Source of the DNA: an uncultured Rhodospirillaceae bacterium | Lineage (GTDB): Bacteria > Pseudomonadota > Alphaproteobacteria > MPNO01 > UBA2964 | Reading direction: 5' to 3' | NCBI GenBank assembly: GCA_964499275.1 | Contig: CAZCKO010000003.1 | Span: 21,729 to 85,728 of the forward strand | Length of the DNA: 64,000 nt | Part shown: one piece after another, positions 3,051 to 45,013 of the stretch | Layout: each line of letters opens with the position of its first letter | Numbering within the stretch: the stretch's first letter is position 1 | Made by a program: the position numbers and the translations under genes | The notes under the pieces: model-generated | What the model was told of the DNA's origin: nothing | Database searches by the model: none | Seen by the model: only the letters and a program-made list of their open reading frames with translations

Positions 3051-3374
3051 TCAGGTCGGTAAGCTAAAACCGGGGGGCAGGTTAAGACCACCAGTAATTT
3101 TAGACATCTCCTCAGATACACGGACTTCAACCTTTGCTTTAGCATCGGAAAATGCTGCGACGATAAGATCCTCAACAATTTCCGAATCATCGGCGTTAAA
3201 TAAAGAAGCATCAATATTCAGACCAAGCATTTCACCCTTACCATTGAGCGTTACAGTCACCATTCCCGCGCCAGAAGTGCCGGAAACTTGGAGATCAACC
3301 ATTTTTTCCTGCATCTCTTGCATTTTTGTCTGGACTTCCTGTGCCTGTTTCATCATTTGGCCGAGGTTTTTCAT
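3051..3374 (-). CDS. ybaB: nucleoid-associated protein YbaB/EbfC
   Basis: 107 aa. N-terminus MKNLGQMMKQAQEVQTKMQEMQEKM is typical of YbaB. Located between dnaX and recR. Confidence 0.9.
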   Translation of the reverse strand: MKNLGQMMKQAQEVQTKMQEMQEKMVDLQVSGTSGAGMVTVTLNGKGEMLGLNIDASLFNADDSEIVEDLIVAAFSDAKAKVEVRVSEEMSKITGGLNLPPGFSLPT

Positions 3375-3409
3375 AACATTGCCTTTTTAAATTTTACGGT
3401 TTTATTACG

Positions 3410-5221
3410 TTAATCTTCAGGTTCTTTAGTACCACTTTCCAAATGGTCTTCCGTCCCTTGTTCGACAACCGCTTCAACGGTTGCCCCAGGGAACGTTTCC
3501 ATGACCGCTTGAACTTGTGGGTGCTTAGTTGCCTTGTCTAGCTTCGCCGCTTTTGATATCTGAATTTGTTCTTGAAGGGTCGGGTCGCCTTGCTTATCTG
3601 ACAAGCTCACCAGCCATTGATTACTGGTCCATTCGCTGAGGAGACTGCTCACCCGTGTTGCCAAATCAGGTGGGGCCTGTTGCTCCGTCCGTATGGCTAT
3701 ATGGCCAACTTCAAACCGCACCAAATGAACTTGATTAAATAGAATAGAGTGTAAAAACGCTTCTCTTCGTTCTTCAAACATTGCAACAATATCTTCAAAA
3801 GTTTGATCAGCAATCGGTACCGGCTTTTCTTTAGTGGGCACTGCTAACTCTAGCTTATCTGGCGCGTCTAAATCATTTTCATCTTCAACTTGTTGCGAAA
3901 TTAAATCTGGCTGCGCAATATTTTTTACTTTCAGGACCCCAGATTTGTCAGATACTCCGAGACTTTGTGAGGGTGTATCGAGTACATTCCTATTTACTTC
4001 TAAAATTCGTGCGCTATCAGAATGTCCATTTGTATCATTATCTTCTAATTTCCGAATCAAATCGGCTGGCGTGGGTAAATCTGCCATATAAGTAAGTCTG
4101 ATTAGAACCATTTCTACAGCCTGCGACGAATTGGATAGGCTCTGTACTTCATCAATTCCCTTTAACAAAAGTTGCCAAGTGCGGCCAAGTATTGGAACTG
4201 TTAGTAATTCGGAGAGTTTAAGTCCTCTATCACGATCTATCTGGGCAACACCCGCTCCTTTAGCTGCAGCAGGGGAGAGCTTGATGCGTGTCAACCAATG
4301 TGTAAGCTTTAATAGATCCTGAAGAACTACAATGGGATCAGCACCAGAGTCATACATGTTGTTGAAAATGGTTAAAGCCTTGTCGACAGCGCCTTTCATC
4401 ACCGCCTCAAAAATGTCATAAATCAACCCCACATCAGCGAGACCAAGCATTTCACGGACTTCATCCTCTAAAACCTCTCCGTCCTCAGTAATACCCGCGT
4501 GAGCAATAGCTTGATCCAATAGGGATAAACCATCTCTTACGGATCCATCAGCCGCATTAGCAATCAACTCAATTGCCACCGGAGAGATTTTCACCTTCTC
4601 TTGTTTTGCAACCGAATTAAAATGATCAATCAACGTTTCGACATCCACTCTCCTTAGATCAAATCTTTGACAACGAGATAAAACTGTAACAGGGATTTTT
4701 CTTGTTTCCGTTGTGGCGAAAATAAATTTTACATGTTCCGGGGGCTCTTCCAAAGTCTTCAATAGCGCGTTAAAAGCGCTGGAGGACAACATGTGAACTT
4801 CGTCAATAATATAGATCTTAAATCGTGCATCGACAGGTCGATACCTGACCCCCTCTATAAGCTCTCTAATATCATTCACGCCAGTGCGGCTAGCCGCATC
4901 CATTTCAACAACGTCAACATGACGATCTTCCGTAATTGCTTTACAATGCGGACAAACGCCACATGATTTTGATGTAGGCCCACTATTTCCATCTACTCCA
5001 ACGCAATTCAGTGCCCTTGCAATAATGCGCGCAGTGCTTGTTTTTCCAACTCCTCTGACACCGGTAAGTATGAAAGCATGGGGCAACCTATCAGCATGAA
5101 TTGCATTTGTGAGTGTCCGCACCATTGATTCCTGGCCTATCAACTCTGAAAAGGTTCTAGGGCGATATTTTCGAGCAAGCACCCTATAAGGTTGCACGGG
5201 GGTATTTTCTTCAGCTGACAC
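3410..5221 (-). CDS. dnaX: DNA polymerase III subunits gamma/tau
   Basis: 603 aa. AAA+ Walker A GVRGVGKTST, zinc module CGVCPHC, clamp-loader sensor motifs. Upstream of ybaB-recR. Confidence 0.9.
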   Translation of the reverse strand: MSAEENTPVQPYRVLARKYRPRTFSELIGQESMVRTLTNAIHADRLPHAFILTGVRGVGKTSTARIIARALNCVGVDGNSGPTSKSCGVCPHCKAITEDRHVDVVEMDAASRTGVNDIRELIEGVRYRPVDARFKIYIIDEVHMLSSSAFNALLKTLEEPPEHVKFIFATTETRKIPVTVLSRCQRFDLRRVDVETLIDHFNSVAKQEKVKISPVAIELIANAADGSVRDGLSLLDQAIAHAGITEDGEVLEDEVREMLGLADVGLIYDIFEAVMKGAVDKALTIFNNMYDSGADPIVVLQDLLKLTHWLTRIKLSPAAAKGAGVAQIDRDRGLKLSELLTVPILGRTWQLLLKGIDEVQSLSNSSQAVEMVLIRLTYMADLPTPADLIRKLEDNDTNGHSDSARILEVNRNVLDTPSQSLGVSDKSGVLKVKNIAQPDLISQQVEDENDLDAPDKLELAVPTKEKPVPIADQTFEDIVAMFEERREAFLHSILFNQVHLVRFEVGHIAIRTEQQAPPDLATRVSSLLSEWTSNQWLVSLSDKQGDPTLQEQIQISKAAKLDKATKHPQVQAVMETFPGATVEAVVEQGTEDHLESGTKEPED

Positions 5222-29100: not shown

Positions 29101-29283
29101 TAGCTAATCTCCTAACTGGTTTATTTGGGAATAAATTAAACTCTATTCCTTTAGGTTATAACATCCCCATTGTTTAATATTAAATATCCAACTTGATGAC
29201 CTTGTATGCTCTCTAACAGAAAGATAGGATTTTTTTTAATTGGCATCACAAAGACAAAGATTAAGCCTTGCGAAAGGAATATC

Positions 29284-30438
29284 ATGGCATCCGCCTTGGG
29301 AGGGATAACGGTTCTAGAATTTGCATCCTATGTCTCGGGTCCATACGCCGGAATGATGCTAGGTGACCTTGGGGCGGAAGTGATCAAAGTGGAGGACGAT
29401 AAAACTGGAGACCCCTTCCGTGGTTGGGGTGCCACCGACTATTCTGCAACATTCGGGTCCGTAAACCGCAATAAGAAAAGCATCATACTTAATTTAAAGT
29501 CTGATGATGGTGTCGAAAAAGCAATTGCATTAGCATCACAGGCCGACATATTGATCGAAAATTTTCGCCCGGGCACCATGGATCGCCTTGGGCTCGGTTT
29601 TGAAAAGCTATCTACACTTAACCCACAACTCATCTATTGTTCCGTAACAGGCTTTGGCGGCACCGGGCCCTATGTAGCAAGACCAGGGTATGACACCATT
29701 GGCCAGGCAATGGGGGGGTTACTATCTGTACTTACCGATTTGGAAGCACCCATGGGTATGGGTATCTCTTTATCCGATCACCTTACAGGTATGATGGCAG
29801 CATATGGTTGCCTTGGAGCGTTATTTTCTCGTGATAAAACGGGGAAAGGCCAACGCGTAGAAACCTCTTTGCTAACAGCAACCCTTTCATTTCTTGGTGA
29901 AAATGCGGCGCGATATTTTGAGGAAGGAACTGTGCCAACGCGTAAGACGCGCACACAAACTGCACAGGTCTATGCCTTTGTCGCGGGAGATGGAAGACCT
30001 TTTGTCGTACACCTGTCTTCACCGCCAAAGTTCTGGAAAGGTCTTTGTAAAGTAGCGGGTCACGAAGAATGGTTCGACGATGCGAGGTTTGTAGATAAAG
30101 CAAATCGGCGCGAGAACTATGACGAGCTAGAAAATTTACTTACTAAAGTCTTTGAAACCAAACCCCGTGGACATTGGCTCTCCCGATTACTGGAAGAAGA
30201 TGTTCCTTCGGCGCCAATTTATACATTGGATGAAACATTAGCTGACCCTCAAATACAGCATCTCGGTATGGTACGCGAGGTACCCCATCCCAAGGTCGGA
30301 TCTGTTAAGCTTATCGAGAGCGGTGTAAGAATGTCAGATACACCGCCAGAAATTGTTACTGCGGCGCCGATGCACGGCGAACATACAGAAGAAATACTAA
30401 ATCGTATAACCGATAAGAAAACACGGATAGAAAAATGA
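29284..30438 (+). CDS. CoA-transferase family III protein (CaiB/BaiF)
   Basis: Motif LEFASYVSGPYAGMMLGDLGAEVIKVE is the family III CoA-transferase N-terminus. The track ORF extends to 29206, but ATG 29284 is the likely start. Confidence 0.8.
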   Translation: MASALGGITVLEFASYVSGPYAGMMLGDLGAEVIKVEDDKTGDPFRGWGATDYSATFGSVNRNKKSIILNLKSDDGVEKAIALASQADILIENFRPGTMDRLGLGFEKLSTLNPQLIYCSVTGFGGTGPYVARPGYDTIGQAMGGLLSVLTDLEAPMGMGISLSDHLTGMMAAYGCLGALFSRDKTGKGQRVETSLLTATLSFLGENAARYFEEGTVPTRKTRTQTAQVYAFVAGDGRPFVVHLSSPPKFWKGLCKVAGHEEWFDDARFVDKANRRENYDELENLLTKVFETKPRGHWLSRLLEEDVPSAPIYTLDETLADPQIQHLGMVREVPHPKVGSVKLIESGVRMSDTPPEIVTAAPMHGEHTEEILNRITDKKTRIEK

Positions 30439-31616
30439 TCGAACCATCTACTCATTTACGAGATAGGTGTGCCTTAGTTGGAGCAGGTCACAGCAGACTT
30501 GGTAAAGTACCGGGTGTATCTGCACAGGGGTTGCTCGAAGAAGCGATGCTAAATGCGCTTCTCGACGCAGGGTTAACCATCAATGATATCGATGGTCTGA
30601 TTTGTCGGGGCCCTGATGAAATTTATACATTCCATCAAGTGATGGGAGAAAGAATGGGGATCAATACGACCTTTTCAACAACCCTTACTAACGGTGGAGC
30701 CAGCCAGGTTTTAGGTGTTGCCCTCGCCGTCATGGCTATTGATGCGGGTTTGGCAAGCTGTGTGTTAGTCGGATACGGACGTGATAATTGGTCAAGGGTT
30801 CATGCCAATAAAGAAAATCATATGCGGAGTTCGAGTAGACCTCAACAAATGTATGGTATGGAATTTGGGCCTGAATTTGGCTATTACGGCGCAATTGCCG
30901 CACACGGCTTCGGCGCGCAACGTCACATGCATGATTATGGGACGACCCGAGAACAATTTGGTGAAATTTCGCTGGCTTTTCGCAATTATGCCCTCAATAA
31001 CCCCGATGCCGTCATGAAAAAACCTTTAACGATGGGGGACTATCTTGACGGTCGAATGATTGTTGAGCCATTCAGCCTATTTGACTGTTCGCTGCAAACA
31101 GATGGAGCAGGAGCCGTAGTGGTAACGTCCACAGAACGGGCCAAAGACCTGCGGCAAAAACCGGTACTAATCAAAGGGTTTGGTACTGGCAATAACATCA
31201 GTGGTTGGTTCAATGGAGACAACATGACCCATACAGGGGCAATCCAATCCGGCAAAACCGCCTATACAATGGCAGGCCTAGGACCCAAAGATATTGACTT
31301 TGGACAAATTTATGACTGCTTTACATACATGGTTTTGGTGCAGCTCGAAGACTATGGCTTTTGTAAAAAGGGAGAAGGGGGAGAATTTGTTGCATCTGGT
31401 GCTCTAACTCTCGACGGAGCGTTGCCGACGAATACCTCTGGTGGCCAACTCTCGGAAGCCCACGTCGAGGGCATGTTACAAGTCGTCGAAGGCGTTCGCC
31501 AACTGCAAGGTATTTATGGCCCGAAACGCCAAGTGCCAAATGCCGAAATAGGTTTAGTATCGGGACATGGCGGAAACACGGTATGTGAATCAACCCTCAT
31601 CCTCGGGACAGCATGA
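30435..31616 (+). CDS. thiolase-like protein (SCP-x/lipid-transfer-type, non-canonical thiolase)
   Basis: 393 aa thiolase fold. Its start overlaps the CoA-transferase stop (ATGA). It is followed by a DUF35 partner. Confidence 0.7.
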   Translation: MIEPSTHLRDRCALVGAGHSRLGKVPGVSAQGLLEEAMLNALLDAGLTINDIDGLICRGPDEIYTFHQVMGERMGINTTFSTTLTNGGASQVLGVALAVMAIDAGLASCVLVGYGRDNWSRVHANKENHMRSSSRPQQMYGMEFGPEFGYYGAIAAHGFGAQRHMHDYGTTREQFGEISLAFRNYALNNPDAVMKKPLTMGDYLDGRMIVEPFSLFDCSLQTDGAGAVVVTSTERAKDLRQKPVLIKGFGTGNNISGWFNGDNMTHTGAIQSGKTAYTMAGLGPKDIDFGQIYDCFTYMVLVQLEDYGFCKKGEGGEFVASGALTLDGALPTNTSGGQLSEAHVEGMLQVVEGVRQLQGIYGPKRQVPNAEIGLVSGHGGNTVCESTLILGTA

Positions 31617-32026
31617 TGTCTGATGAATATACAAAGGCGATACCTGTCCCTGGCCCGGAATCTATTCCTTTTTGGGAAGGAGCAAGAAACCATGAATTGC
31701 TAGTCCAACGATGTAAAACTTGTGGCCACCACTGGTTCCCTCCATCAACGGTCTGCACAGGGTGCGGCAGCGACAATATAGAATGGGTGGAAACGACGGG
31801 AAAAGGAAGAATCTTCAGTTTTGTAATTTTTCACCGACTTTATCATAAGGGATGGGACGGTGAAATACCGTATGTCGTTGCAATTATTGAACTTGACGAA
31901 GGTGCAAGAATGCTGAGCAATGTTATTGGCATACCGGTTCAAGACGTAAATTGTGACATGCAAGTAAAAGTTGTATTTGATGATGTGACAGAAGAATTAA
32001 CGTTGCCTAAATTTAGTCCGATTTAG
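31613..32026 (+). CDS. Zn-ribbon/OB-fold protein (DUF35 family, thiolase partner)
   Basis: 137 aa. Rubredoxin-like CKTCGHHWFPPSTVCTGCGS followed by an OB fold. Its start overlaps the thiolase stop. Confidence 0.75.
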   Translation: MMSDEYTKAIPVPGPESIPFWEGARNHELLVQRCKTCGHHWFPPSTVCTGCGSDNIEWVETTGKGRIFSFVIFHRLYHKGWDGEIPYVVAIIELDEGARMLSNVIGIPVQDVNCDMQVKVVFDDVTEELTLPKFSPI

Positions 32027-33291: not shown

Positions 33292-33705
33292 TCAGCGAGG
33301 TCGGCCTTTTTCGAATTTATCAGTAAAGTCCAAGGGAGGTGTATAAGGCAGAGACTTTGAAGTATAGACCTCGATTTGTGGTCTGATTTCACCAACATTG
33401 TCGATAGTGCCTATTTTAACATTCTTGATACCGGGGCTTCCTGACCCAGAACCAAAAAGCTGGGAACCACAAGTTGCGCAAAACTCTTTTGTCATCATGC
33501 TACCGCTGTCCGCTGTATGCTGGTAGCTGGTCGTCGAACCCTGAAGAACATTTAGATTATTTTCCTCTACAAAAACATTTGTAGCAAATGCTGAGCCCGT
33601 CGCCCGCCGGCAATCGTCACAATGGCATTGAGCCACTCGAACTGGCTCTCCTGTCACTTCATACCTCACTGCACCGCAAAGGCAGCTCCCTGTGAATCCG
33701 GCCAT
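33292..33705 (-). CDS. GFA family protein (glutathione-dependent formaldehyde-activating enzyme / CENP-V fold)
   Basis: 137 aa. Zinc-binding pattern CLCGAVRYEV...CHCDDCRRATGSAF...CATCGS. Confidence 0.8.
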   Translation of the reverse strand: MAGFTGSCLCGAVRYEVTGEPVRVAQCHCDDCRRATGSAFATNVFVEENNLNVLQGSTTSYQHTADSGSMMTKEFCATCGSQLFGSGSGSPGIKNVKIGTIDNVGEIRPQIEVYTSKSLPYTPPLDFTDKFEKGRPR

Positions 33706-33795
33706 TGAATTATCCTTCCTTTAAAACTATTAGCCTATCGCACCACATGCAATCTGCTGTAAAAACAATAGGAACAAATTTATTGAGGTCAGATT

Positions 33796-34014
33796 ATGCC
33801 AAATGATAGCGATAAAGACGATTTAATTTTTGAATCAATGATAACAGCCTCGAAAGTTCCGGTATCAGAAGAAGAAAAGCGAGCTCTGCGCAATGCTTAT
33901 ACTTCATTGATGGATCTTGCTTCAAAAACACGCAAACCTGGTCGTGCTTGGGATGTAAGGATGCTCCCTATTTTTGCTCCAGACGCTCCAAAGGGAATTA
34001 ACGATGACTGTTGA
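33796..34014 (+). CDS. small hypothetical protein translationally coupled to the downstream amidase (GatC/AtzG-like partner?)
   Basis: 72-aa acidic ORF. Its stop (...GAC TGT TGA) overlaps the amidase ATG (aacgATGACTGTTGAtcg). Confidence 0.4.
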   Translation: MPNDSDKDDLIFESMITASKVPVSEEEKRALRNAYTSLMDLASKTRKPGRAWDVRMLPIFAPDAPKGINDDC

Positions 34015-35404
34015 TCGTAACATTCCAACGATCGCTGAAGCTGCACGCCAAATTAAGGCCGGCTTGTTATCTCCCACTTCCTTAGTAGAATCTTGCCTCC
34101 ACCGGATCGAGAAGCATGACCCTGTTATCAATGCATTCCATACCGTTTTCGCTGACCAAGCCATAATAGATGCTCAACTTGCAGAAAAAGAAATTAAAGA
34201 AGGAAATTATCTTGGCCCATTACACGGTATCCCCATCGGACTAAAAGATGTCTTCTATCTGAAAGGCCACAAGACCACCGCCAATTCTCGTGTGATGGCA
34301 GATTTTGAAGCTGACGAAGATGCGACAGTAATTACCCGATTACGAGAAGCTGGCGCTATTTTTATCGGTCAGCTCAATACGTATGAGTTTACATTTGGCG
34401 GTAGACCAACTTTTGACGCCCTCTATCCACCCGCTCGTAACCCTTGGGATATTACCCGCTCTACAGGAGGCTCTAGCAGTGGCTCGGGAGCTGCCGTTGC
34501 CGCCGGGTTTTGTCTTGGTGCTCTTGGTAGCGATGCCGGCGGATCTATACGGACACCTTCCGCATTTTGTGGTATCGCCGGAATGAAAGCCACTTTCGGT
34601 AGAGTAAGTACATTTGGGGACCTACCTCTTTCCTTTTCCTTTGATTGTGTTGGGCCGATGACATGGAATAGCGAAGACAGCGCTCTGATGCTACAAGTGC
34701 TGGCGGGCTATGATGAGCGTGACGCAGGGAGTGTCGATACCCCCGTCGGAGACTACGTCGGGCGCCTGAACGAAAGTATCCACGGGCTAAAAATTGGCAT
34801 GATTCGCCATTTCTACACTGATGATTTTGATTCCCCAGTGGAGATTGCCAAATCTATCGATGGTGTAGGCTCTACACTGCAAGAAATGGGAGCAACAGTT
34901 GACGAAATTCATGTGTCCCCTCTGATCGATTGGCATGCGGTGGGACGTATTATTCTCCCAGCAGAAGCTTTTGCCATTCATGAGGAAAATTTACAAAAAA
35001 GATGGGAAGAATTTGGTCCACTAGCTCGAAACCGGATGATGCTCGGAAGTCTGGTGAGGGCGGCTGACTATATTCAGGCACAACGACGGCGTACCGAATT
35101 GCTTGAAGAGATTGAGACCGCATTTCGTGACTATGACATCATAATCACTACGGCCATGTTAACACCGCAGCCCCCCCTAGACGACAAGGCGCCATTTCCA
35201 TTTCTTGATGTTCCAATGATTGCTGTACCCTTTAACTTAACCCTTCACCCTGTCCAAACGGTACGGGCCGGATTTTTTGATGATGGCATGCCAATCGGAG
35301 CCCAGATCATCGGAGGCCATTGGGATGAATCTACAGTTCTCAAAGTGGCCCATGCCTTTGAGAAAAAGGCTGGCCTTTTAAATCGTTTTCCTAACTTGAT
35401 GTAA
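34004..35404 (+). CDS. amidase-signature family amidase (GatA-like)
   Basis: AS signature GGSSSGSGAAVAAG, catalytic Lys in GLKD and cis-Ser in GGSIR. The track ORF begins at 33974; the likely start is ATG 34004 (MTVDRNIPTIAEA...). Confidence 0.85.
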   Translation: MTVDRNIPTIAEAARQIKAGLLSPTSLVESCLHRIEKHDPVINAFHTVFADQAIIDAQLAEKEIKEGNYLGPLHGIPIGLKDVFYLKGHKTTANSRVMADFEADEDATVITRLREAGAIFIGQLNTYEFTFGGRPTFDALYPPARNPWDITRSTGGSSSGSGAAVAAGFCLGALGSDAGGSIRTPSAFCGIAGMKATFGRVSTFGDLPLSFSFDCVGPMTWNSEDSALMLQVLAGYDERDAGSVDTPVGDYVGRLNESIHGLKIGMIRHFYTDDFDSPVEIAKSIDGVGSTLQEMGATVDEIHVSPLIDWHAVGRIILPAEAFAIHEENLQKRWEEFGPLARNRMMLGSLVRAADYIQAQRRRTELLEEIETAFRDYDIIITTAMLTPQPPLDDKAPFPFLDVPMIAVPFNLTLHPVQTVRAGFFDDGMPIGAQIIGGHWDESTVLKVAHAFEKKAGLLNRFPNLM

Positions 35405-35487: not shown

Positions 35488-37809
35488 ATGGGACAATTCG
35501 CATTAGGCCAATCGGTTCCGCGCACCGAAGACCCTCGCCTTTTACGTGGGGATGGTCGCTATGTCGATGATATTAAGCTATTAAACGAGTGCCACGCGTA
35601 CATGCTGCGCTCACCACATGCCCACGCAAAGATCATAGGTTTAGATTGTAAAGCGGCACGAGGAATGCCTGGTGTTATCGCTATTTTTACGGGTGAGGAC
35701 TGGGTAGCTGATGGTCACGGCCAGCATCCGGCCGGACATAATCGTATACGCCGCGATGGTGCACCTCTCTATGTTCCAACCAGACACGCAATAGCCCACA
35801 AAGAAGTTAAAGTAAGCGGCGATATCGTCGCGATGGTCGTTGCTGAAACTGTCAACCAGGGTAAAGACGCCGCCGAAGCAATCATCGTGGACTACGAACT
35901 TTTACCAGCTATCACGGAGGGCACACAGGCGGCTGCAGATGGAGCACCGATACTCCATAAAGGCTGTGAAAAGAACGAAAGCTATTTTTATACAGCAGGC
36001 AATAAAGAGGCTGTGGACTCTGCGATAAAGGGCGCCCACCACGTTACAAGACTTCAAACGAAAATAAACCGAATTACAGCGAACACAATGGAGCCCCGCT
36101 CTTGTATCGGTGATTACGATCACAGGTTTAATCGATATATCTTGATGGGTGGTACACAGCGCCCCCACCTTTTGCGTAAAACACTTGCAATTGACGTCTT
36201 TGGTGTACCGGAAACAGCTGTGAAGATGGTCACCCCGGATGTTGGCGGTAGTTTTGGTATGAAAGGTGGGCATGCACCGGAAAATCATGCCTGTATGTGG
36301 GCTGCCAAAAAAATTGGGCGACCCGTACGGTGGGTGTGTGAACGTAGTGACGGTCATGTCACCGATTACCATGATCGCGACCAGCTCACCGATGCACATC
36401 TCGCATTAAATAAAGACGGTGAGTTCTTGGCACTTAAGGTCAGCAACATTTGTAATATTGGTGCCTGGCTTGATCCCGGTGGAACAATTTCCCCGGCCGG
36501 ACACCTTGGCGGGCTGGCCGCAACCTATAAGACACCATTAATTTATGCAGAATCTTCAGCAGTTTTCACCAACACCAGTGCCAATGGACCTTTTCGAGGC
36601 TCTGGCCGCCCTGAAGCATCCTACGTCATCGAGCGCCTAATTGATAATGCCGCCCGTGAAATGCATTTAGATCGCGCAGAAATACGGTTGCGAAATATCG
36701 TCCCTCCGGAGGCCATGCCATTCAAGACCGGTTTGATATATACGCTTGATTGCGGTGAATTCGGTAAAAATATGGAAAATACCCTAAAAATGGGCGACTA
36801 CCAAGGGTTTGAAGGCCGCCGAGAGAACGCCCGTAAGGATGGCAGACTCCGGGGCCTAGGGATCGCCAATTTCATCGAACAAACGGCACAACTTGATGGA
36901 GAGACTGTCAGCATACAGTTTGACCAGTCCGGAACTGTTACAGTTATACCAGGCTCTGTCGATCACGGTCAGGGACATGATACGATGTATAAAATTGTTG
37001 TCTCTGACGCGCTAGGCATTGATGAAAATGATATTCGTGTCTCCTACGGAGATACCGATTCTCTTCCTTATGGCGGCGGCACATATGCATCAAGAACAGC
37101 TATTCTTGGCAGCTCGGCAGCGGTACGAGCGATCGACAAGATTCTTGAAAAGGGTAAGAAAATAGCTGCACATATTTTAGAAGCAGCTGATGCCGATATC
37201 GAATTCAAGGATGGCTCATTCCAAGTAGTCGGCACAGACAGAGAGGTGACAATCCAGGACGTCGCCAAGGCCTCCTATCGCAGTGATCAGCTCCCGGATG
37301 GTATGGAACGGGGACTATTTGATACCGATACCTTCACTCCAGGGACACCCACCTTTCCCAATGGATGTCACGTTGTTGAGATCGAAATTGAGCCGGAAAC
37401 GGGTGTAACGGAAATTCTAAAATACTCGGTTACAGACGACGTTGGCACAGTGATCAATGCATTGACTTTGGAGGGCCAAATCCATGGCGGTATCGGACAG
37501 GGAGTAGGCCAAGCCTTTACAGAGGGGATACAGTATAGCGCTGATGGCCAACTTTTAACCGGCTCCTTTCTTGATTATGGAATGCCGCGTGCTGACGACA
37601 TGTGCAGCTTTGACCTGTCGAATAACCCCGTTCCAACCAAATTAAATCCGGTGGGAGCAAAAGGGGCTGGTGAAGCAGGAAATGTTGGAGCATTAGCAGC
37701 AATCATGAATGCCGTTGTTGATGCGCTGACACCTCTCGGTATCGAGAACCTCGACATGCCCGCAACACCGGAGAAAATTTGGCGGGCTATCCAAGATGCG
37801 AGTGTCTAG
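35488..37809 (+). CDS. xanthine dehydrogenase family molybdopterin-binding large subunit (CoxL-like, not form I CODH)
   Basis: 773 aa. N-terminus [28 protein letters not shown] is CoxL-like. The active-site loop reads GPFRGSGR rather than AYXCSFR. No adjacent FeS or FAD subunit genes. Confidence 0.75.
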
Positions 37810-42399: not shown

Positions 42400-44571
42400 C
42401 TAACGCATGGCTGAAAGTCTTATAGACTCTGGTGTAAATGGCATTCTCCTTAACCTTAGGCCAACCGCATTATAAATCGCGTTAGCAATTGCCCCCGCCG
42501 TTGGTCCTGAAACGCACTCTCCGGCACCCAGAAACCTCTCTTTCGGCCGATCGATTAGGATTGTTTCGATTTCCGGAATATTATCAAACCGAAGGATAGG
42601 ATATGTTTCCCAATCACGACTTGTAATACCACCACGATCGTAAGTAACGGCTTCATAGAGTGTCCAACTTGCTGCTTGAAGAAATCCCCCTTCATATTGG
42701 GCAATCAGTCCAGCACGGTCGATAACTTGTCCTGCATCACCGGCTATTGCCGCCCGAAGCATCTTTACTTCCGCTAGATCATTTACTTCAACCTCAACCG
42801 CGACAGCCGCATAAGCTTGAATATTTTTATACTGTGCGAAGGCAATCCCTATACCCCTGTTCTCTGGAACTTCTGAACCCCAGCCAATTTTAGTAGCGGC
42901 CGTCTGAATAACATCTATAGCCCTTTGATCCGAAAGGTGCTTCAGACGAAATTGTACCGGATCAATGTTTGCCCTCTCTGCCAGCTCATCGATAAAGGAC
43001 TCAATGGCAAAGATATTAGCGAAAGCACCCAATGTTCTCAGAGCGGAAGTTCGGAGGGGCAACCCCTTTACCAAGTTTTTTACAAGCCTCTTATTTTCAA
43101 ATTCATAAAGCGGATCAAGGTTCCGATGCAATCCTGCATGACGAGACATATTTGGTTTCGGAACTAACGGTTCTATGCCAGCTTCAAGATATTTGAGGGG
43201 CAACAATCTTGCTGGACCAGCTCCACCAGGTTCTGGTCTTGGGCGCATGCCATAAGTATCGCTAAATGTCTCCTGTGACCATGCAATAACTTTACCATTT
43301 ACATCAAGGCTCGCCGTAACATCCATTGCCATACAAGAACCGTATGGCTCCCACGCGTGTTCATCCGCCCGTGTCCATTTTAACAAAACCGGTTTTCCTG
43401 GCAGGGCCAATGCAACAAGAGCCACATCAACGGCGGCGTCGTCTGCCCCGTTATGACCGTAACAACCAGATCCAGGAACATGTATGACCGTCAAATTTTT
43501 CAAGTCCCAAGAGAGAGCCTCGGCTAGGCTATCCCGCAGGACATAAACACCTTGGCTATGCGTCCAAATCGTTATTTTTTTACCTTCCGCCAAGGCCATG
43601 GCGGCTGACGGCCCTATAGACCCATGCATTAGATAGGGCTTTTCATAACGCGCGGAGTGGGTTGAAATAGCGTTTTCCGGCGGGGGTACGAGTGGTTCAA
43701 CCTCCGCATTTTGCGGTATTCCCTCCAAAACTGGTAAACTTATTTTGTCATTTGAACTTAACCGCTCGTAGATATCCTGTGGTTCAAGTCCCTTCCCGTA
43801 ATCCCAATCCGACGTGTCGAATAACTTCTCGGCTGCCTTCACCGTCGTGTATTCATCAGGATGTGCAATGGCTAGAAAAGAGCCATCCCGAACCAGATCA
43901 CAACCACCCTTTTTAAGACTTACCGAAACATCTTGGTCAACTGACCTTAAACGCGCTTCGTAATGAGGGGGGCGAACAACACGAGCGTGTACCATATTGG
44001 GCATCTTCATATCCTGAATGAAATATGGCTGTCCGCTGACAATCTCCTTCAAACCACGAGTGATTACCGGTTTGCCAATTACCCTATAGGCATTTGGGTC
44101 CTTAGTTGTGGCGCTTGGATCTACATCAATATCGAAGGGCCGTCCTGCGGCGAGTTCTGCATAGGTAATCGAGCCATTGGTGTCCCGGGATTGGATAAGT
44201 CCGTTAAAAACCTCCAGCGTAGATTTTTCTACCTCTAATACATCAGCAGCTAATGAAAGCAAGTGTCTGCGCGCAGTCGCCGAGGCCGCCCGAACCGCGT
44301 TTCCAGCCTCCTCCATGGAGTTACTGCCAGATGTAATCCCTTCATCAGGATCTACACCGGTTTCAGTGCGGGAAATATTGATCTGATCAATATCTACATC
44401 CAGTTCTTCTGATGCTATCAGTGCCAAGGCTGTAGAAATCCGTTGTCCAATATCAACTTTACCTGTGTGAACCGAAATGCGCCCGTCATCGTTGATAGTA
44501 ATCCACTTATCAAGGCGTGGACTTTTCTTGAGACTATTACTATCAGGCATTACCACCCGCCTGAACAGCAC
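42400..44571 (-). CDS. xanthine dehydrogenase family molybdopterin-binding subunit (isoquinoline 1-oxidoreductase beta / membrane aldehyde dehydrogenase large subunit-like)
   Basis: 723 aa IorB-type architecture. The real start may be the internal Met, MPDSNS.... Confidence 0.8.
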   Translation of the reverse strand: MLFRRVVMPDSNSLKKSPRLDKWITINDDGRISVHTGKVDIGQRISTALALIASEELDVDIDQINISRTETGVDPDEGITSGSNSMEEAGNAVRAASATARRHLLSLAADVLEVEKSTLEVFNGLIQSRDTNGSITYAELAAGRPFDIDVDPSATTKDPNAYRVIGKPVITRGLKEIVSGQPYFIQDMKMPNMVHARVVRPPHYEARLRSVDQDVSVSLKKGGCDLVRDGSFLAIAHPDEYTTVKAAEKLFDTSDWDYGKGLEPQDIYERLSSNDKISLPVLEGIPQNAEVEPLVPPPENAISTHSARYEKPYLMHGSIGPSAAMALAEGKKITIWTHSQGVYVLRDSLAEALSWDLKNLTVIHVPGSGCYGHNGADDAAVDVALVALALPGKPVLLKWTRADEHAWEPYGSCMAMDVTASLDVNGKVIAWSQETFSDTYGMRPRPEPGGAGPARLLPLKYLEAGIEPLVPKPNMSRHAGLHRNLDPLYEFENKRLVKNLVKGLPLRTSALRTLGAFANIFAIESFIDELAERANIDPVQFRLKHLSDQRAIDVIQTAATKIGWGSEVPENRGIGIAFAQYKNIQAYAAVAVEVEVNDLAEVKMLRAAIAGDAGQVIDRAGLIAQYEGGFLQAASWTLYEAVTYDRGGITSRDWETYPILRFDNIPEIETILIDRPKERFLGAGECVSGPTAGAIANAIYNAVGLRLRRMPFTPESIRLSAMR

Positions 44572-45013
44572 GATCGATGGCTTTTAAAACTCTAAGTTGA
44601 GATCCGCAACGACAGAGATGATCAGAAAGGGCCTCAATAATCTCTTCCCTGCTCGGTTGAGGGTTTTTTTTAATCAGCGCCGTAGCTCCAATCACCAAGC
44701 CGGCGGTACAATATCCACACTGAGCGGCCCCCTCTTCTATAAAGGCCTGTTGGATGATAGTGGGCTTACCTTCCACAGCCAGACCTTCGACAGTAGTAAT
44801 TTCTGCGCCAACAAACTCTGAAGCAGCACGCACACACGATAATACCTGCTCACCATTGACTAAAACCGCACAGGAGCCACACTGCTCCAACCCACATCCT
44901 AATTTTGTACCTACTAAATCGAGCTGATTACGAAGAACATAAATTAACGGTGTTTCCGCTAAACAATTAACCTCAAATGTTTCACCATTCACCTTTAAAG
45001 AAAACTTTGCCAT
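44543..45013 (-). CDS. (2Fe-2S)-binding protein, small subunit of IorAB-type molybdoenzyme
   Basis: 156 aa with two [2Fe-2S] cysteine clusters (CGxGxCGxC and CGYCTAG). It overlaps the beta subunit start. Confidence 0.85.
   Translation of the reverse strand: MAKFSLKVNGETFEVNCLAETPLIYVLRNQLDLVGTKLGCGLEQCGSCAVLVNGEQVLSCVRAASEFVGAEITTVEGLAVEGKPTIIQQAFIEEGAAQCGYCTAGLVIGATALIKKNPQPSREEIIEALSDHLCRCGSQLRVLKAIDRAVQAGGNA

Follow-up and report, generated by a model that had tools for sequence, protein, structure and literature searches.

A small open reading frame (ORF) that lies directly in front of an amidase gene in a 64,000-nucleotide (nt) stretch of DNA from an uncultured Rhodospirillaceae bacterium (contig CAZCKO010000003.1 of assembly GCA_964499275.1, positions 21,729 to 85,728 of the forward strand; this whole stretch is called the window in the following) probably encodes a non-catalytic subunit of the GatC/AtzG type, which would be made together with the amidase, bind to it and keep the enzyme folded and soluble. 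We put the probability of this reading at roughly 75%. It is based on the conservation of the small protein of 72 amino acids (aa), on its presence beside or within most of the related amidases from several phyla and on a distant profile similarity to the helper subunits GatC and AtzG. Because of this distant kinship, the amidase probably needs its small partner, whereby physical binding, stoichiometry and a requirement for solubility are features that we infer for the pair. An initial annotation of the window had already proposed that the two genes are translationally coupled and resemble GatC/GatA or AtzG/AtzE.

The Small ORF Is a Protein-Coding Gene That Overlaps the Amidase Gene

With regard to its length, a lone ORF of 72 codons does not exceed chance expectation at a G+C content of 45.5%, and the ORF listing of the window contains many spurious ORFs of 50–100 aa. 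A search of 5.8 billion proteins yielded six cluster representatives of 72–73 aa with 65–97% identity to the small protein, which originate from marine metagenomes or from Rhodospirillaceae metagenome-assembled genomes. In every contig retrieved, the small ORF is located directly 5' of an orthologous amidase (82–85% identical), and this pairing has been kept in four diverged marine alphaproteobacterial lineages. The orthologous gene order is GFA, small ORF, amidase, molybdenum cofactor (MoCo) large subunit, GMC oxidoreductase and TauD. The ratio of nonsynonymous to synonymous substitutions (dN/dS, Nei-Gojobori method) was calculated for the window against two lineages with unsaturated, though near-saturated, dS and amounted to 0.125 and 0.127 for the small ORF, compared to ~0.04 for the amidase and 0.066 for the GFA gene, so that the coding signature looked for is present. 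Values of ~0.13 show that the small ORF is under purifying selection as a protein, although more weakly than its neighbours. Thus, the small ORF is a real protein-coding gene, and this statement rests on conservation, purifying selection and synteny, not on length alone.

The small ORF translates to MPNDSDKDDLIFESMITASKVPVSEEEKRALRNAYTSLMDLASKTRKPGRAWDVRMLPIFAPDAPKGINDDC and has the C-terminal end INDDC, followed by the stop codon. As suggested by the initial annotation, its stop codon overlaps the amidase start: the TGA at positions 34012–34014 lies inside the amidase gene, which begins with the ATG at positions 34004–34006, resulting in an overlap of 11 nt (ATGACTGTTGA). The arrangement had been called classic translational coupling, which is correct for the overlapping stop and start codons but not for the classic 4-nt ATGA type, since the overlap amounts to 11 nt here and to 11, 8 or 1 nt in the orthologous loci, whereas more distant relatives mostly show ATGA or GTGA. 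The Shine-Dalgarno-like sequence AAGGGA of the amidase gene falls into conserved P-K-G codons of the small ORF, and AAAGG or GGGAG is present at the equivalent place in three loci of relatives (L001, L004 and L008). In the small protein, P-K-G (CCAAAGGGA, 33988–33996) is an invariant C-terminal element that thus coincides with the Shine-Dalgarno sequence of the next gene, and part of the apparent protein conservation may therefore be a constraint at the nucleotide level. A TTG at position 33974, which is given as an earlier in-frame start in the ORF list, was rejected as the amidase start codon because the N-termini of the orthologues align with the ATG at 34004. All orthologues begin at the equivalent of this ATG with M-(T/I/V)-(V)-D-R-x-I-P-T-I-A, for which reason the amidase gene was delimited as listed in Table 1. 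A scan for promoters and terminators, which included the 90-nt divergent intergenic region, gave promoter-like sites that were not above chance and no better than those in shuffled sequence.

The Amidase Is Related to GatA and AtzE

The amidase is a full-length amidase-signature enzyme (PF01425, E value 2e-105) with an intact catalytic triad of Lys81, cis-Ser157 and Ser181, which is invariant in the amidase alignment. Its closest solved relatives in the PDB are GatA (3h0l, 2.7e-74) and then AtzE (6c62_A, 3.7e-60), and to our knowledge GatA and AtzE are the two amidase-signature enzymes known to carry a small partner of such a kind. Against the NCBIfam model of gatA (TIGR00132) the enzyme scores 310 bits at a cut-off of 481, against the AtzE family 299 bits for PRK09201 (cut-off 461) and 289 bits for TIGR02715 (cut-off 426), and against PRK06169 306 bits, which is far under the cut-off as well. 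Since these scores are far below the NCBIfam cut-offs and the identity to AtzE is 32%, the amidase was assigned to neither of the two families. The description as GatA/AtzE-like consequently stands with respect to the closest solved relatives but does not extend to membership, and judged by these comparisons the enzyme belongs to the GatA/AtzE neighbourhood of the superfamily as a member of neither family.

Small Partners of the Same Family Accompany Most Related Amidases

In a profile search of the full library with the six close homologues, 14 matches of 66–77 aa were obtained, and the consensus of this family reads D..FEGL..ASGVPVS.EEKA.LR.AY..L..LA.RVR.PGR.W..RMLP.F.P. For one member (P0011, locus L020) a called amidase gene follows with a 4-nt overlap, and two others (P0009 at L019 and P0018 at L022) show a 4-nt overlap with a gene that is cut off by the end of the contig and whose initial residues seem similar to the N-terminus of the amidase. 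A repetitive protein of 1206 aa (P0013) was discarded as a low-complexity artefact, as it matched only profile positions 51–64 in 13 stretches. Plasmid-borne amidases with 40–44% identity to the window enzyme likewise have a small neighbour of similar pattern, which is located upstream in Shinella, Agrobacterium and Planktothrix and downstream in Aminobacter.

For a wider census, 80 genomic loci with an amidase alignment were collected, and a hidden Markov model (HMM) was iterated from the narrow family over all open frames until it converged at 85 distinct sequences. The training set contained amidase-adjacent sequences only and neither AtzG nor GatC. The census is based on the 79 loci with a resolved amidase start, whose amidases are 40–83% identical and which derive from Alphaproteobacteria, Betaproteobacteria, Dehalococcoidia/Chloroflexota, Methylomirabilota, a Myxococcus and Entotheonella. 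Family members of ~60–75 aa adjoin about 90% of these amidases; the conservation upstream of the amidase thus applies to the orthologues and also to much more distant enzymes. A separate ORF directly 5' of the amidase was found in 53 of the 79 loci, and 35 of these 53 upstream partners overlap the amidase gene (28 with 4 nt, 6 with 1 nt and 1 with 11 nt). The domain is located just 3' of the amidase in 3–4 loci, and in 14 loci it is fused to the C-terminus of an amidase of 537–574 aa. Such fusions are classic "Rosetta-stone" evidence of a permanent physical partnership. In three loci the domain occurs elsewhere, without adjoining the amidase, and in seven loci the family HMM had no match, whereby two of the latter (L067 and L091) have look-alike upstream ORFs. 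Apparent fusions to the upstream gene in L028, L029, L030, L034 and L089 were rejected as artefacts of stop-poor DNA of high G+C content, in which stop-to-stop frames are long.

The fused amidases are encoded in L035, L038, L042, L044, L050, L055, L058, L063, L065, L069, L078, L079, L088 and L092, and the domain is joined to the enzyme via a Pro/Ala-rich linker. L088 from Entotheonella carries two fused amidases in tandem, and L035 has an extra free copy of the domain ~100 nt downstream of the fused one. A sub-clade with downstream partners comprises L015 (4407–4601), L047 and L101, with a 4-nt overlap in Aminobacter. In a rough neighbour-joining tree the downstream and the fused forms fall into neighbouring clades, the window enzyme is found within the upstream-type majority, and all these amidases are far from AtzE. 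This distribution suggests an evolutionary route from an upstream to a downstream position, followed by loss of the stop codon and fusion. The gene neighbourhoods around the pairs vary widely, and therefore the pair of small protein and amidase is the constant feature.

The family comprises at least 194 clusters at 90% identity, and all 120 representatives listed are without a Pfam domain, nearly all of them being named "hypothetical protein." Two members located upstream of annotated amidases, one on a Planktothrix agardhii plasmid (L013, 2777–2983) and one on Agrobacterium fabrum pAt2788b (L014, 2767–2967), are missing from the gene tables of PLSDB, where the table is incomplete and the original records may differ, and the Shinella partner (L012, 2804–2992) is listed there only as "hypothetical protein." No description of the wider family of small partners was found in the searchable literature.

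The Small Protein Shows Distant Similarity to AtzG and GatC

In order to compare the family with the known helper subunits, the iterated HMM and profile–profile alignments were used. The HMM matches proteins of the AtzG family in register, with E values from 1.4e-4 to 9e-3, and GatC of S. aureus with an E value of 0.087. With hhalign, the family aligned to AtzG over 53–56 columns (Prob 74–76%, E value 2.3–2.7e-5) and to five GatC chains from the PDB over 43–49 columns (Prob 82–83%, E value ~1e-5), whereby family columns 7–55 correspond to GatC residues 3–51, i.e., to the N-terminal half that binds GatA. The scores of 25.7 for AtzG and 28.7 for GatC exceed those of the controls, in which the templates were reversed or column-shuffled (40 shuffles) and which reached at most 16.8 and 12.0, respectively. 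Between AtzG and GatC themselves, hhalign detected no similarity (Prob 0.4%), and their weak alignment is in the register that is predicted via the family, as the offsets of 0 (family to AtzG), −4 (family to GatC) and −4 (AtzG to GatC) are consistent with one another. Since there is no significant profile similarity between AtzG and GatC, the new family provides a sequence link from one to the other. Shared features are an N-terminal helix that ends in a small/hydrophobic "A(R/S)(A/L)G(L/V)" turn, a second helix that starts with ".L(S/T/P)..E" and a tail motif with proline, which reads VEP in GatC, EPAxIF in most of the family and MLPIF in the window protein. AlphaFold2, run with an alignment of 121 sequences, predicted a helix at residues 4–19, a loop, a second helix at 25–45 and an extended tail at 46–72, with a mean predicted local distance difference test (pLDDT) score of 73.6 and a lower confidence for the tail than for the helices.

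Several observations weigh against this assignment. The 72-aa protein alone had no match in Pfam (E value up to 1), NCBIfam or the PDB sequences (phmmer), and in the same way the search against PF13318 (AtzG-like), HpxX NF033624 and PF02686 (GatC) remained negative at E values up to 1, whereas AtzG of pADP-1 as a positive control matched PF13318 at 7.9e-9. When 75 members were scanned singly, two touched PF13318 (best E value 0.018) and one PF02686 (0.03), all of them sub-threshold. The narrow profile of 14 members gave nothing meaningful against the PDB, and the corresponding alignment gave no hhalign match to AtzG, so that the link appeared only after the family had been widened. For peptides of ~65 aa, values of 74–83% are suggestive without being conclusive, both the AtzG and the GatC template have little depth (Neff 2–2.6), and at the place where E-P-A-x-I/V-F is found in most members, the window subfamily shows M-L-P-I-F. 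A two-helix peptide is moreover a common shape, and Foldseek retrieved just two weak matches among 350,542 PDB chains, neither of which is significant, although the better of the two corresponds to a GatC chain (9a62_B from a GatA–GatC model, E value 5.3). Overall, the profile comparisons support the small protein as a distant relative of GatC and AtzG that stands outside both curated families. The proposal of a GatC/AtzG-like partner thus holds in kind, on the basis of the profile–profile alignments (76% for AtzG, 82% for GatC) and the fusions, but not as membership.

It could also be that the small protein is an unrelated helical peptide that has converged on the GatC/AtzG arrangement, or that it acts as a transient, dedicated folding chaperone. 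The negative direct HMM searches and the hhalign probabilities below 85% are in line with this, and so is the comparison of AtzG with GatC, whose missing profile similarity shows that the sequence signal is weak in this fold class. However, the family matches AtzG as well as GatC in register and with transitive consistency, the scores greatly exceed those of the shuffled controls, and the partner enzymes are themselves homologous, which argues against convergence, whereas the covalent fusion in 14 lineages argues for a permanent association and thus against a transient chaperone. We therefore consider this explanation unlikely, although it is the one that survives best among the alternatives.

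A Leader Peptide or a tRNA-Dependent Amidotransferase Would Not Explain the Pair as Well

Another explanation would be a regulatory role of the small ORF as an upstream ORF or leader peptide, so that its translation, and not its product, controls the expression of the amidase. The stop/start overlap and the position of the amidase Shine-Dalgarno sequence inside the small ORF would suit such a function, as would the scan, in which a separate promoter or terminator signal was not found. On the other hand, the amino acid sequence is under purifying selection, belongs to a recognisable protein family that is conserved across phyla and is predicted with confidence to form a two-helix fold. Furthermore, a leader function is impossible for those copies of the domain that are encoded 3' of the amidase or form part of its C-terminus. 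A purely regulatory role of the small ORF is thus improbable.

Even less can be said for a bona fide GatC/GatA pair of a tRNA-dependent amidotransferase in place of a catabolic amidase. GatA provides the top NCBIfam and PDB matches of the amidase, the small family matches the N-terminal half of GatC, and one JGI record (P0113) names a family member "amidotransferase C subunit." Yet the amidase stays at 310 bits against the 481 bits of TIGR00132, the small protein has no match to PF02686 and lacks the C-terminal ~40 residues of GatC, and there is no adjacent gatB-type gene. In addition, the neighbours in the window and in close relatives are catabolic, and the distant homologues occur in varied catabolic contexts, which makes a role in a transamidosome very improbable. 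A short, charged helical protein without annotated domains could also have a function of its own, e.g., in regulation or as an antitoxin, and share no more than the operon with the amidase. This is hardly credible either, because the small protein is found exclusively and almost universally beside one amidase clade across otherwise unrelated neighbourhoods and is fused to the amidase in some lineages.

If the small protein is a GatC/AtzG-type subunit as we propose, both proteins would be made together by means of the overlapping stop and start codons and the ribosome-binding site of the amidase inside the small ORF. The small protein would then bind to the amidase, whereby the helix-loop-helix and the extended C-terminal tail probably wrap the GatA-like fold in the way that GatC does on GatA and AtzG on AtzE. 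This wrapping would keep the amidase folded and soluble as a hetero-oligomer. The chemistry would be carried out by the amidase with its Lys81/cis-Ser157/Ser181 triad, and its substrate is most likely an amide or ureido intermediate of the catabolic island in which the genes are located.

The Pair Is Located in a Catabolic Gene Neighbourhood

The features of the locus are summarised in Table 1. The GFA-family gene and the molybdenum hydroxylase gene, which the initial annotation had named as neighbours, were both confirmed (Table 1).

Table 1. Features of the locus around the small ORF and the amidase gene (positions in the window).
Feature	Position	Strand	Basis
GFA-family gene, divergent	33292..33705	-	
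Shine-Dalgarno-like GAGG, 7 nt 5' of the small-ORF ATG	33785..33788	+	sequence
Small-protein gene, 72 aa, putative non-catalytic amidase subunit	33796..34014	+	ORF, homologues, dN/dS, family profile, AlphaFold2 model
Shine-Dalgarno-like AAGGGA for the amidase, 7 nt 5' of the amidase ATG, within the small ORF	33991..33996	+	sequence
11-nt overlap ATGACTGTTGA, amidase start codon to small-ORF stop codon (translational-coupling junction)	34004..34014	+	sequence
Amidase-signature enzyme, 466 aa	34004..35404	+	PF01425; ATG start matching orthologues
CoxL-type molybdenum hydroxylase large subunit, 83 nt 3' of the amidase	35488..37809	+	

The island also holds MFS transporters, several Amidohydro_2 enzymes, an MR/MLE enzyme, a GMC oxidoreductase and TauD, and it fits the catabolism of a nitrogen-containing organic compound. 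No gatB-like gene was present among the neighbours scanned, and no atzH/hpxZ gene (DUF3225, NTF2-like) follows the amidase, neither in the window, where the molybdenum hydroxylase gene comes next, nor in the orthologous loci. Genes for a family III CoA-transferase, an SCP-x-type thiolase-like protein and a ChsH2/DUF35 zinc-ribbon OB-fold protein are located at positions 29206–32026 on the plus strand with overlaps of 4 nt, and the same trio occurs in L004–L007, 5' of the block of MFS, GFA, small ORF and amidase. Genes for an FAD or a 2Fe-2S subunit are absent next to the gene of the CoxL-type large subunit, both in the window and in the orthologous loci. A second MoCo protein, which is IorB-like (42400–44571, minus strand), overlaps a 2Fe-2S subunit gene (44543–45013, minus strand), and the orphan CoxL-type subunit might borrow the 2Fe-2S subunit of this IorB-like pair.

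Implications for Amidase Annotation and Expression

The kind of system described here is already known from AtzEG (2018), but the pair from the window is new and lies outside AtzG/AtzE and GatC/GatA as they are curated. In this amidase clade, heteromeric enzymes may be the rule. With about even odds, the family constitutes a third large branch of the GatC/AtzG superfamily that is without a curated model and accompanies a whole clade of catabolic amidases across several phyla, so that a GatC-type belt subunit would be a normal and probably ancestral component of GatA-like catabolic amidases and not a "vestigial" feature of AtzE only. If so, many amidases that are annotated or expressed as single-subunit enzymes would be incomplete. 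In practice, the enzymes of this clade are likely to misfold or to lack activity if the small ORF next to them is left out of the clone; in the gene tables examined, this ORF is usually named "hypothetical protein" or does not appear at all. This is relevant for the discovery of enzymes for the degradation of amides, urethanes and herbicides. With an HMM of the new family, several hundred small orphan proteins would receive a name, and the domain at the C-terminus of amidases of ~540–575 aa would be flagged. The AtzEG finding that a part of the transamidosome architecture (GatC–GatA) persists in catabolic amidases is extended from one family to a broad clade of several phyla. The result will not surprise a specialist who knows AtzEG, but it is useful for annotation and for the heterologous expression of amidases.

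Comparison With Known Systems

The pair resembles GatC/GatA of GatCAB (PDB 2DF4 and 3H0L) in that GatA is the best solved and the best NCBIfam relative of the amidase and that the aligned GatC residues 3–51 include the "LArL.Ls.eE" helix-loop-helix and the "EP" motif; the two helices and the extended tail of the AlphaFold2 model also appear to resemble GatC. It differs in the length of the small protein, which has 72 aa compared to 92–104 aa in the solved GatC chains. As the alignment ends at GatC residue 51, the C-terminal part of GatC (~40 residues) is absent, as it is in AtzG. A function related to tRNA is not expected for the window pair, with no nearby gatB, an amidase score under the GatA cut-off and a catabolic context. 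A further likeness concerns GatF of the yeast mitochondrial GatFAB, where the position of GatC is held by a protein that is too diverged to be recognised by sequence (PMC4027206). Unlike the window protein, GatF is a larger, fungal protein and belongs to a true transamidosome.

AtzG/AtzE is the 1-carboxybiuret hydrolase of Pseudomonas sp. ADP (PDB 6C62), and its small subunit belongs to PF13318 (AtzG-like), formerly DUF4089; the HpxX/oxalurate cluster is grouped with this system as well. AtzEG, the subject of work by Esquirol et al. in 2018, is reportedly a GatA-like amidase of catabolism that carries a small GatC-like subunit. AtzG has 68 aa and is encoded at positions 3219–3425 of locus L018, where atzE starts at position 3428. 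In contrast to AtzG/AtzE, the window protein has no match to PF13318 or HpxX, the amidase scores under the AtzE-family cut-offs, and the amidase gene is not followed by atzH/hpxZ (DUF3225) and has another gene neighbourhood. The C-terminal motif AEIYRPAPFP of AtzG is replaced by (R)MLPIF.P in the window protein and by EPAxIF in most of the family. According to PMC6219798, which cites Esquirol et al. (2018), AtzE is insoluble without AtzG, and the AtzE/AtzG pair is regarded as derived from GatCA. In both the window pair and AtzG/AtzE, a protein of ~70 aa is encoded immediately 5' of a GatA-like amidase with a tightly coupled junction, and both small proteins are shorter than GatC, have no GatB partner and occur in catabolic contexts for nitrogenous compounds.

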